From the NCBI GenBank assembly GCA_963743635.1, contig CAVUQO010000003.1, positions 224,001-288,000 of the forward strand: a stretch of 64,000 nucleotides of DNA. Reading direction: 5' to 3'. The notes under the pieces were generated by a model, which did not search any database, had not been told where the DNA came from, and was given only the letters and a program-made list of their open reading frames with translations. Below are positions 1 to 4,689 of this stretch, in pieces (the first letter of the stretch is position 1; each line of letters starts with the position of its first letter). The translations under genes were made by a program, and so were the position numbers. The DNA is from Candidatus Babeliales bacterium. Lineage in GTDB: Bacteria > Babelota > Babeliae > Babelales > Vermiphilaceae.

Positions 1-330
1 CGCTGGGGCAGGCAAGGCGGCTTGGTCAGAATTTATCGCCCTTAATAAGGCGGCAAATCCGAACAATATTGGGGGTTGCGTATTATGAGATACTTGATTT
101 TGATTGCGGTCATTGATATTTGCTAATAATGCGGCAACACCAGGAAGCCTTGCGGGCTCTGTGGCGTTAGGAGCAATTGCATCGTCATCTTCATCGATAA
201 CGGCAGAAGATCGTTTTTGACCAGTTATTGTTCGTATATTTATGTTTTTAGACTGATCTTGATCCATTGCGAACACGCCCATAAAAGAGCAGCTCAGAAT
301 CAGCGCTAAAAAAATTGATGAGTTTTTCAT
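1..330 (-). CDS. 5' part (runs off window start) of a secreted paralog of the C2H2 zinc-finger protein at 608-3571
   Basis: ATG at 330 reads MKNSSIFLALILSCSFMGVFAMDQDQSKN..., near-identical to the N-terminus of 608..3571. Not in the ORF track because it is truncated by the window. Confidence 0.85.
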   Translation of the reverse strand, partial: MKNSSIFLALILSCSFMGVFAMDQDQSKNINIRTITGQKRSSAVIDEDDDAIAPNATEPARLPGVAALLANINDRNQNQVSHNTQPPILFGFAALLRAINSDQAALPAPA

Positions 331-1157
331 ATAATTACCCCCTTTTGGCTAGATATTATTTCTATCTGTCTATATATAAGTATAGCTATTTTTGGAAGCT
401 TTGCAACCCCTCTTGTTGCCCTGAAATAGCCTGTTTTGCTGTAAATTATTTGCTTTTTGGGGCATCTTAATACACTAGGTGGGGATTCAGATAGAAAAAT
501 ATGGGGGCGCAAATAGAGCAGCTCTGTGGCGTTAGGAGTAGGGGGGTTTTATCCAGTGCAGGTTCAGCCCTGGTTAGTGTACCTATTCGAGGGGGGTGCG
601 AGTGTAGCTAGTTGGGGTTAGCTATAGCAGTAGTGGGCTCTGTGGCCATAGGTCTGTATTTACACGTTTTTTCATGCGTGTTGCGCGCATCTGATCGAGG
701 AAAAAGTTCACCACAACCAGCGAAATTGCATGTATACGGCTTCTCACCGGTGTGTTTTCTGATGTGGGTTGCTAGATTGCTTTCTCGTGCGAATTTACGG
801 TGACAGAATGAACATGCGGCCATCGGCTCGCCAGTATGGATTTTTTTGTGCAACTCAAGATCTGCGTTGCGTGCAAATGATTTGCCACAATTTTGATGAT
901 CGCATACGTAAGGTTTTTCGTCAGCATGAGTTCTTATATGACTCCTCAAATGGCCTACCTGCCTAAAGCTTTTGCCACAACCTTCCTCTTCGCAGAGAAA
1001 TGGGCGCTCGCCGCTATGAATGAGTTTGTGATCTTTTAATCCGCTAGAAGACATGAATGATTTGCCGCATCCGGGTTCATTGCAGACATATTTCTTGATA
1101 ACCGCACGAATCGTAGTGGCGGCAGGAGCAGCTTGATGGGTTGTTTTTCGCGCTTGG
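1..1157. repeat. Direct repeat copy 1 (about 1.15 kb): ZF gene 3' end, intergenic region and next gene 5' end
   Basis: Matches 3242..4399 at offset 3241/3242; the intergenic part is almost identical. Confidence 0.95.
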
Positions 1158-3571: not shown

Positions 3572-4399
3572 ATAATTACCCCCTTTTGGCTAGATATTAT
3601 TTCTATCTGTCTATATATAAGTATAGCTATTTTTGGAAGCTTTGCAACCCCTCTTGTTGCCCTGAAATAGCCTGTTTTGCTGTAAATTATTTGCTTTTTG
3701 GGGCATCTTAATACACTAGGTGGGGATTCAGATAGAAAAATATGGGGGCGCAAATAGAGCAGCTCTGTGGCGTTAGGAGTAGGGGGGTTTTATCCAGTGC
3801 AGGTTCAGCCCTGGTTAGTGTACCTATTGGAGGGGGGGTGCGAGTGTAGCTAGTTGGGGTTAGCTATAGCAGTAGTGGGTTCTGTGGCCATAGGTCTGTA
3901 TTTACACGTTTTTTCATGCGTGTTGCGCGCATCTGATCGAGGAAAAAGTTCACCACAACCAGCGAAATTGCATGTATACGGCTTCTCACCGGTGTGTTTT
4001 CTGATGTGGGTTGCTAGATTGCTTTCTCGTGCGAATTTACGGTGACAGAATGAACATTCGGCCATCGGCTCGCCAGTATGGATTTTTTTGTGCAACTCAA
4101 GATCTGAGTTGCGTGCAAATGATTTGCCACAATTTTGATGATCGCATACGTAAGGTTTTTCGTCAGCATGAGTTCTTATATGACTCCTCAAATGGCCTAC
4201 CTGCCTAAAGCTTTTGCCACAACCTTCCTCTTCGCAGAGAAATGGGCGCTCGCCGCTATGAATGAGTTTGTGCTGTTTTAATCCGGTAGAAGAACTGAAT
4301 GATTTGCCGCATCCGGGTTCATCGCAGACATATTTCTTGATAACCACAGGAATCGTAGTGGCGGCAGGAGCAGCTTGATGGGTTGTTTTTGGCGCTTGG
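3242..4399. repeat. Direct repeat copy 2
   Basis: Matches 1..1157. Confidence 0.95.
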
Positions 4400-4689
4400 A
4401 TTGATAATAAGATTGTTGCAACGTCAAGTTCGTGACGATGGCCTTCATCTTTTTTAGATGATGAAGGTGGCGATTCGTCATCATCGCCATCATCATCGTC
4501 GTCATGATCTTCCTTACCTTGGATCATTAGTTTCATTTTTTTTGGAAGAGGAGGATTGATGTCGTGACCCTCTTCATGATCTATCGATAAAGACCCATTA
4601 GTCATCATGCATTTTAATTCCCGGGATGACATTGAAAAGCTCGTTTGAGTCCAGACCAGCAACAGTATGATAATTATCAGATGGCGCAT
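3850..4689 (-). CDS. Secreted C2H2 zinc-finger protein (5 fingers)
   Basis: Signal peptide, acidic tract and PKKMK basic patch. The C-terminal 5 fingers are nearly identical to the last 5 fingers of 608..3571. Confidence 0.93.
   Translation of the reverse strand: MRHLIIIILLLVWTQTSFSMSSRELKCMMTNGSLSIDHEEGHDINPPLPKKMKLMIQGKEDHDDDDDGDDDESPPSSSKKDEGHRHELDVATILLSIQAPKTTHQAAPAATTIPVVIKKYVCDEPGCGKSFSSSTGLKQHKLIHSGERPFLCEEEGCGKSFRQVGHLRSHIRTHADEKPYVCDHQNCGKSFARNSDLELHKKIHTGEPMAECSFCHRKFARESNLATHIRKHTGEKPYTCNFAGCGELFPRSDARNTHEKTCKYRPMATEPTTAIANPN

Follow-up and report, generated by a model that had tools for sequence, protein, structure and literature searches.

What do tandem genes for arrays of eukaryote-type C2H2 zinc fingers do in a bacterium? 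The question is raised by a locus at the left end of a 64,000-nucleotide stretch of DNA from a Candidatus Babeliales bacterium (assembly GCA_963743635.1, contig CAVUQO010000003.1, positions 224,001 to 288,000 of the forward strand; G000:C3:224001-288000 in our numbering, with G000 the source genome), which we analysed at full length and call the window. We observed five tandem, intron-free genes on the minus strand, Z1 to Z5, in a locus that extends upstream of the window start, where we examined C3:212001-229000 (L021). The original prediction, made from the letters of the window, had described three such genes; tandem order and lack of introns held up, whereas the number is five and the locus runs beyond the window. 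We propose that these genes form a cluster, specific to the lineage, of zinc-finger effectors that would be exported by Sec, directed at the host and bind host nucleic acid on behalf of an obligate intracellular member of the Babeliales (Dependentiae), and we consider this reading about evenly poised between right and wrong. Judged from their sequences, the proteins are probably tagged for export and aimed at the host; nuclear targeting, sequence-specific binding and transactivation are plausible.

Classical C2H2 fingers in bacterial DNA

We identified fingers with the pattern C-x2-5-C-x12-H-x3-5-H/C and by Pfam scan. Three proteins are clearly poly-C2H2, namely Z5, Z4 and Z3 with 5, 16 and 8 fingers, and the zinc ligands are intact in all 29 of these pattern-complete fingers; Z1 and Z2 hold one pattern match each. 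Against a gathering cut-off of 25.2 bits for zf-C2H2 (PF00096/PF13465), Z4 scored 183.9 bits (E 7.7e-56), Z3 87.8 bits (E 2.7e-25) and Z5 84.1 bits (E 3.8e-24), and the scores of Z4 and Z5 are far beyond chance. Z1 has one weak finger under the cut-off (E 6.8e-4, 20.4 bits), and Z2 shows the C2H2 pattern with no Pfam match. Linkers of the TGEKP type occur (HTGEKPY, HSGERPF, HADEKPY, HTREKPF). The Z5 array, the only one modelled, was predicted by AlphaFold as five beta-beta-alpha units at a mean confidence (pLDDT) of 88.9. Its best PDB matches were DNA-bound arrays, namely Aart (E 2.9e-16), ZNF410, PRDM9, ZFP568, WT1 and CTCF, with Foldseek listing 2i13 at E 2.9e-16 and 6wmi at E 1.2e-14, and this C-terminal array is 41-51% identical to the DNA-bound arrays among the fold matches. 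The fingers of the locus are classical Krueppel-type C2H2 fingers. Pattern and Pfam scan thus agree with the 5 and 16 fingers first described for the two genes complete in the window, and the TGEKP-type linkers and the long Asp/Asn tracts are equally real. The contrast drawn there with Ros/MucR regulators also stands: we found no ROS_MUCR match at E <= 0.01, and the proteins carry arrays of 5 to 16 classical fingers.

The Asn/Asp tracts of Z4 (amino acids (aa) 260-267, 481-507 and 720-757) reach 38 residues and lie between its finger groups. Such tracts are rare in the proteome, being present in 12 of 1423 open reading frames (ORFs) in a crude set of at least 90 aa each. The locus also contains a 1218-bp direct duplication, each unit of which comprises a five-finger 3' end, the intergenic region and a leader-bearing 5' end; the second copy begins 58 nt upstream of the window and ends at window position 1157. 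As a result, Z4 has a Z3-type N-terminus and a Z5-type C-terminus, and the sequence upstream of Z3 is identical to that upstream of Z4, with a strong Shine-Dalgarno sequence in both (AAAGGGGG, located 8-9 nt before the Z3 start, in 331..607). Inner modules of Z3 and Z4 open with ...DDDDDMDQD-SKN..., resembling the mature N-terminus MDQDQSKN..., so that these long proteins resemble entire leaderless units fused head to tail. How many modules the repeat-rich Z3 and Z4 contain is taken from the assembly, the short-read contigs of other runs being fragmented there.

The cluster sits 224 kb inside an 818,594-bp contig of a 1.45-Mb genome in three contigs. It occupies 7.9 kb on the opposite strand between gspE and a pseudopilin gene, with junctions at C3:220.86 kb and 228.69 kb, and all 20 zf-C2H2 matches of the genome fall within C3:220,917-228,332. 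Z1 (240 aa) and Z2 (170 aa) are small leader-bearing genes that follow Z3 on the same strand. The histidyl-tRNA synthetase HisRS, encoded 8 kb upstream of the locus, is 60-62% identical to proteins named Candidatus Dependentiae/Babeliales. The five genes have a GC content of 0.40-0.44 and a third-position value (GC3) of 0.30-0.40, compared with 0.428 and 0.390 for the genome. We looked for a recent transfer in this composition and saw no signal, GC and GC3 lying within 1 standard deviation of the genome means (Z2 GC3 is ~1.7 standard deviations low).

Gene order and contigs of other runs gave the same picture. The pseudopilin-like gene comes immediately after gspE in six related genera, with TamB in three of the six and the PLD gene in five. 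In one relative (G017) the same slot is filled by a 5.6-kb insert that comprises six or seven minus-strand genes with a leader followed by Met (G017:C1:422129-426890; L129:2630-7391), several of which have C2H2 fingers and one of which is split by a frameshift. In another (G021) the zinc-finger genes abut gspE, so that zinc-finger genes lie in or beside this slot in three genera. The pseudopilin-like gene itself had no Pfam match, and its G017 orthologue matches the N_methyl motif. Among metagenome contigs, one of 2507 nt (run X1) takes in gspE, Z1 and the beginning of Z2; a 969-nt contig reaches from the Z4 5' end through to Z5; and a 4980-nt contig starts inside Z5 and covers at least ~310 nt beyond the gene. 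These bridging runs are peat and soil metagenomes from 2-3 studies; the run that matches the locus best may be the source sample, so that they are not fully independent evidence. Among the runs listed as carrying the locus, none is of RNA. The locus is bacterial DNA and no chimera; synteny and bridging contigs together bear out the linkage to bacterial genes that had been claimed from the window. One low-depth contig of run X4 shows an odd joint of 12304 to 15590 on opposite strands.

We also looked for a donor of the fingers. The best named matches were TFIIIA, ZNF76, chytrid proteins and a mixed set of animal zinc-finger proteins, 26-48% identical across roughly half of the query; such similarity is generic, and we name no donor.

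The export leader, its gene class and the export machinery

All five genes begin with a basic residue and a hydrophobic stretch ending in FA/MD, FA/MN, YA/MQ or FS/MS, with the slash marking the predicted cut. Leaders were called by a heuristic that combines an n-region with Lys or Arg, a hydrophobic window and the -3/-1 rule (small residue at -1, small or aliphatic at -3). By this heuristic the Sec-type signal peptide first claimed for each gene is present, and it is conserved across genera.

To describe the Met that follows the leader we used a strict rule, which asks for a Met no more than two residues away from the first charge, and found 118 of the 1423 crude ORFs in this leader-Met class. 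The residue at -1 is Ala in 66, Gly in 17, Ser in 7 and Cys in 6 of them, the residue at -3 is small or aliphatic in nearly all, and the residue after Met is Asp in 37 and Glu in 28. The signature is visible without selection: Met takes the place of X in A-X-[DE] motifs at residues 13-45 in 17.4% of cases, as against 1.8% at later positions and a Met frequency of 2.7% in the proteome. The density of the tripeptide AM[DE] over residues 13-45 is ~9 times that found in the rest of the proteins. Z3 and Z4 satisfy the strict rule; Z1, Z2 and Z5 escape it, with Met 3-5 residues before the first charge. The Met after the leader was considered as a general second start. We rejected it for Shine-Dalgarno-driven initiation, as a Shine-Dalgarno-like 4-mer precedes the leader start in 79 of the 118 genes and the internal Met in 6. 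Z3 and Z4 have their strong Shine-Dalgarno before the leader ATG, and the public gene calls of Z1 and Z2 contain the leader.

We scanned 89 of the 118 leader-Met ORFs, those lying in 20 retrieved regions, against Pfam, and 56 had no family. Six had RING-H2 domains (some with ankyrin), six had GNAT acetyltransferase matches (one below curated cut-offs), three had WD40-like propellers and three DUF5092; Sel1, DnaJ, sulfotransferase, PLD and PAF-acetylhydrolase occurred as well. A few of the 89 (a solute-binding protein, a pilin, an ABC-2 membrane protein, a short-chain dehydrogenase (SDR) and BamE) probably entered the class as false positives. In the whole genome, seven of seven RING genes above the Pfam cut-off have a leader and then Met, and 10 of 11 ankyrin genes have a leader. 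The RING, ankyrin and WD40 proteins behind this leader make sense only inside a eukaryotic cell. RING E3-type proteins are useless without a ubiquitin system, and for this reason the class points to the host; going by its members, it very likely marks proteins that end up there. The Met after the leader could mimic a eukaryotic N-terminus or serve as a second-step sorting signal. Further examples of the class, which is rich in orphans and eukaryote-type domains, lie in the window at 45337-46032, 52680-53840 and 55253-55404, all on the minus strand.

The genome encodes two secretins, two T2SSE-type ATPases, one of which is the gspE adjoining the locus, and two tandem S26 type I signal peptidases (G000:C3:523091-524866). 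It is 85% complete, so gene families not found are not proven absent; with this limit, we found no VirB4 (the marker for type IV secretion, T4SS), no FHIPEP (the marker for type III secretion, T3SS) and no DsbA, DsbB or Thioredoxin_4 match in it. The latter result suits Cys-rich zinc domains that cross the periplasm. Without Dsb matches, this genome still places export leaders on Cys-rich zinc binders, namely at least 7 RING proteins and 3-5 C2H2 proteins.

The gspE/pilB-type ATPase gene next to the locus (G000:C3:219139-220859; L021:7139-8859) is split into two frames in the assembly. An extra T stands behind L021:7778 in three metagenome runs, and gspE orthologues of 570-596 aa are unbroken; the two frames probably reflect an error of assembly or a difference between strains. 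Compared with the assembly, the same contigs differ at ~30 sites in gspE and at none in the Z1/Z2 pieces. The features of the locus and its right-hand flank are collected in Table 1. Farther right lie two ordinary tRNA genes, tRNA-Lys(ttt) at 11678-11753 and tRNA-Glu(ttc) at 11892-11969.

Table 1 Features of the zinc-finger locus and its right-hand neighbours, in window positions.
Feature	Position	Strand	Remarks
Z3, 5' part (first 110 codons)	1..330	-	whole gene G000:C3:222471-224330, 619 aa
Z3 leader	within 1..330	-	MKNSSIFLALILSCSFMGVFA, then MDQ
Z3-Z4 intergenic region	331..607	-	duplicated at 3572-3849
Z4	608..3571	-	987 aa; leader aa 1-21, Met22, 16 C2H2 fingers in five groups with Asn/Asp tracts between
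Z4 fingers 12-16	662..1084	-	near copy of Z5 array
Z4 finger 11	1163..1231	-	
Asn/Asp tract of Z4	1301..1414	-	38 residues, aa 720-757
Z4 fingers 7-10	1637..1978	-	
Asn/Asp/Glu tract of Z4	2051..2131	-	aa 481-507
Z4 fingers 3-6	2354..2695	-	
Z4 fingers 1-2	3020..3175	-	
1218-bp direct duplication, one copy	3183..4399		96.5% identity to other copy
Z4 signal-peptide-like leader	3509..3571	-	predicted cut VFA/MD
Z5	3850..4689	-	279 aa; leader MRHLIIIILLLVWTQTSFS, then MS; KKMK patch at aa 50; acidic tract; 5 fingers
Z5 five-finger array	3904-4326	-	aa 122-262
Pseudopilin-like gene	4827..5324	+	N-terminus ...SG/FMMIE and hydrophobic stretch; right-hand neighbour of gspE in relatives
TamB-like gene	5354..8098	+	in conserved syntenic block
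PLD-like gene	8192..8875	+	with leader; in conserved syntenic block

C2H2 arrays in relatives and in other bacteria

Matches to zf-C2H2 were present in 15 of 41 genomes of the order, the source genome included, and at E <= 1e-5 in 20 of 121 genomes (15 of 81 genera) sampled across the phylum. Complete single-contig relatives also carry the arrays, and the zinc-finger genes of ten related genera likewise have a leader. In 14 genomes we counted 32 ORFs with at least two fingers; 26 pass the hydrophobicity threshold, with two more just under it, and Met follows the leader in 23 of the 26. The basic motif K[KR]x[KR] occurs in 24 of the 32 ORFs, often as KRKR just upstream of the first finger, compared with 0.94 motifs per 1000 aa in the proteome of the source genome. 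The non-finger regions had no homologues in the relatives' loci that we examined, a comparison that did not extend to the large protein database.

A prokaryote-wide scan (one genome per species, with a query alignment headed by the Z5 finger array) returned 391 related stretches, of which 62 loci were kept. Within the Endozoicomonadaceae, whose arrays are 37-51% identical to that query, Sansalvadorimonas has up to 36 fingers and a signal-peptide-like leader, Kistimonas has many arrays and no leader, and Endozoicomonas acroporae has one ORF with 5 fingers and no leader. A Sansalvadorimonas contig from a metagenome-assembled genome (MAG) carries tandem genes (L068-L079) that share the leader MHFPRLT..., the 36 fingers being found in 1349 aa. 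Several Pseudomonas encode proteins of ~900-960 aa (L112:736-3546 in Pseudomonas helleri; also L104, L109 and L121). The one scanned, that of P. helleri, combines RHS repeats with 5-7 C-terminal C2H2 fingers, which thus occupy the variable end-domain position of polymorphic Rhs proteins. A Holophagaceae MAG has a leader-like N-terminus, further MAGs have leaders of the Met type, and a Heimdallarchaeota MAG (L110) has a 385-aa ORF with 8 TGEKP-linked fingers and no leader. The devices for export behind which C2H2 arrays stand are unlike one another: Sansalvadorimonas has a Sec-like leader, P. helleri an RHS-repeat protein.

The uniqueness implied by the original prediction does not survive this census, as further members of the phylum and host-associated bacteria outside it have such arrays too. 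Little of it is in print. The literature search, which left aside the supplements where such domains could be listed, found no C2H2 or zinc-finger report for Dependentiae in the portions of the papers it covered, nothing on zf-C2H2 as a eukaryotic-like domain in bacteria and, with the same partial coverage, nothing on bacterial zinc fingers under nucleomodulin and C2H2. It returned one passing sentence on bacterial C2H2 arrays, for Kistimonas, as an enrichment.

Candidate function and known systems

For the zinc-finger proteins of this locus we infer the following course from export onward. Translation would start at the leader ATG, and Sec export would be followed by a type I signal peptidase cut between Ala, Gly or Ser and Met, leaving a mature start of Met followed by Asp, Glu, Ser, Asn or Gln. 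The proteins may then leave through a secretin-based system of the type II secretion or type IV pilus kind, or in outer-membrane vesicles, and enter the host cell, where the target of the C2H2 arrays would be host nucleic acid, and most likely the DNA of the nucleus. Activation or the binding of partners may be the task of the Asn/Asp-rich acidic tracts, and the genes may have diversified by tandem duplication and fusion of whole leaderless units.

Several observations weigh against this course. The leader heuristic is simple and permissive, flagging 683 of the 1423 ORFs, and is no trained predictor; in some relatives Pro precedes Met (G024: LYP/M, LHP/M), which makes a poor signal-peptidase site. 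A Sec leader reaches the periplasm only and is by itself no proof of host delivery, and the secretin and ATPase genes could just build type IV pili. K[KR]x[KR] was found only in Z5 (KKMK, aa 50) and in none of Z1-Z4, and mature Z4, at ~105 kDa, exceeds the size at which a protein could enter a nucleus by diffusion. The linkers of several middle fingers deviate (HRDDKPF, HTRETPF; HTGEPMA also deviates), and close to the 3' end of Z3 lies a -1 frameshift, behind which 1-2 further fingers stand in the other frame. The ratio of nonsynonymous to synonymous substitution rates (dN/dS) between paralogous segments is 0.25-0.8, which fits relaxed constraint as well as arms-race change. Fingers 12-16 of Z4 are 0.95 identical in amino acids to the Z5 array and differ by 13 nonsynonymous and 1 synonymous change; the omega of 3.6 rests on these 14 changes and is not significant. 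Paralogous fingers show no significant excess of changes at the DNA-contact positions -1, +2, +3 and +6, with 9 of 21 falling on these 4 of 11 variable positions. The evolutionary data fit fast-evolving effectors and relaxed constraint equally. The nuclear localisation signal (NLS)-like patches on which the host-nucleus claim had leaned are reduced to the KKMK of Z5; the claim keeps its bacterial genes, classical fingers and export leader, and its NLS motifs are poor, present in one gene of five.

The proteins might reach the host and do something other than sequence-specific transcriptional control, binding RNA or proteins, or coating or disrupting DNA as in a nuclear shutdown. We think this unlikely, though a serious contender. 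The near lack of classical NLS motifs in Z1-Z4 suits it, as do acidic tracts that alternate with short finger groups in a manner unusual for a transcription factor, the TFIIIA-type proteins, binders of 5S DNA and RNA, among the sequence matches, and the WT1-RNA and TFIIIA structures among the fold matches. Nuclear degradation late in Chromulinavorax infection, described in the part of the source consulted, points the same way (PMC6561590). The Z5-type C-terminal array speaks for DNA instead, with its TGEKP-type linkers and its identity to DNA-bound arrays, and so do the NLS-like basic patches just upstream of the fingers in relatives. That the genes are decaying, functionless relics of an old eukaryotic transfer, kept by drift and reshuffled by recombination, is improbable. 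Small genomes are expected to shed useless DNA. Here the frames stay open over 987, 619 and 279 codons, every zinc ligand of the 29 fingers is intact, the leaders and the gspE slot are conserved in three genera, and GC and GC3 match the genome, all of which speak against it. In its favour stand signs of decay that such relics would leave: the Z3 frameshift, relaxed dN/dS, a recent 1.2-kb duplication, a patchy distribution (20 of 121 genomes) and no non-finger homologues in the relatives' loci examined.

Two further readings concern where the proteins are made and whether they leave. A role inside the bacterium, with Ros/MucR-like regulators translated from the Met behind the hydrophobic stretch and never exported, would make sense of a Met after the leader in every gene and of the public Z5 gene call (P0001, 252 aa), which starts at a later Met without the leader. 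We regard it as very improbable in view of the Shine-Dalgarno counts (79 against 6 of 118), the strong Shine-Dalgarno before the leader ATG of Z3 and Z4, the same leader on RING E3-type proteins that are useless in a bacterium, and the lack of a Ros/MucR Pfam match in the locus proteins. An assembly chimera, or host DNA binned with the bacterial genome, is next to impossible. Fingers most similar to eukaryotic proteins and a repeat-rich region in which short-read contigs break might hint at it, but the locus lies deep within a long contig at genome-like GC and GC3, contigs of other runs bridge both flanks, the gspE-pseudopilin adjacency recurs in six relatives with zinc-finger genes in or beside the slot in three genera, and complete single-contig relatives carry arrays.

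Returning to host-directed effectors, a broader proposal can be drawn, which we advance tentatively and regard as doubtful. The Babeliales would possess a large Sec-based effector system in which the leader is cut and Met-Asp/Glu follows, such that exported proteins resemble fresh eukaryotic cytosolic proteins; a Met-acidic N-terminus is stabilising and of the kind acetylated by NatB. Poly-C2H2 proteins would be its fast-evolving, programmable DNA-binding effectors, reprogramming protist nuclei, with arrays mounted independently on Rhs, Sec and other devices elsewhere. The main added value of the locus is the leader signature, which ties the zinc-finger genes to ~100 other candidate effectors. 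With a signal peptide followed by Met-acidic as a simple rule, candidate effectors can be listed for an uncultured phylum, and the signature raises a testable idea about the stability of Sec-exported proteins in the host cytosol. Arrays behind unlike export devices in unrelated bacteria suggest a general strategy, on which hardly anything has been published.

Eukaryote-like and nuclear effectors are known; what is new is the zinc-finger scaffold, in an uncultured phylum. The closest known repertoire is that of Chromulinavorax destructans, a Dependentiae isolate living in host cytoplasm, for which the consulted portion of the source reports signal peptides on 44% of coding sequences, interprets the ankyrin proteins among them as secreted, host-manipulating effectors and proposes outer-membrane vesicles as an effector route (PMC6561590). 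Phylum, lifestyle and signal peptides on eukaryote-type domains are shared, here with no T3SS or T4SS marker found; unlike at this locus, C2H2 fingers and the Met-after-leader signature are not mentioned in that portion (PMC6561590). MoHTR1 and MoHTR2 of Magnaporthe oryzae also place a signal peptide before a C2H2 domain, and both are secreted into host cells, pass into the nucleus and reprogram transcription there, MoHTR2 in rice (PMC12488382, as excerpted). In the same excerpt they differ in being fungal, using the eukaryotic secretory pathway, being small (110 aa) with one zinc-finger domain, and acting on a plant host (PMC12488382). They are the only experimentally supported effectors with signal peptide and C2H2 domain found in the portions of the literature that the search covered. 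The arrays of the Endozoicomonadaceae likewise have many TGEKP-linked fingers in host-associated bacteria, the leader being shared with Sansalvadorimonas only and not with Kistimonas; they differ in belonging to Gammaproteobacteria with animal hosts and in having no Met-after-leader signature. Ros/MucR proteins resemble those of the locus as bacterial proteins with a Cys2His2 zinc site, and they bind DNA according to the part of the source consulted (PMC9779718). They are cytoplasmic, have a single atypical finger and regulate bacterial genes, in contrast to the leader-bearing arrays of classical fingers described here.

The comparison with transcription activator-like (TAL) effectors, proposed from the window alone, holds as an analogy of possible function. 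TAL effectors (in Xanthomonas, with the RipTALs and Bats) have 34-aa repeats with repeat-variable diresidues (RVDs) and a T3SS signal, and to our knowledge they and their relatives are the only natural bacterial effectors that read host DNA by a modular repeat code. A partly consulted source likewise counts only one effector family known to target DNA directly (PMC5570926). No TAL family was among the Pfam matches of the window proteins, and no 33-35-aa RVD repeats were found. Both systems would join a modular, repeat-based DNA-recognition domain to an acidic region, with a proposed action on host genes; the proteins of this locus differ in their beta-beta-alpha C2H2 fingers, each spanning ~3 bp, and in their putative Sec leader and weak NLS. 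If the zinc-finger proteins reach protist nuclei, they would form a second class of DNA-reading bacterial effectors after the TAL effectors, built on the eukaryotes' own scaffold, and their targets would be predictable from finger sequence.

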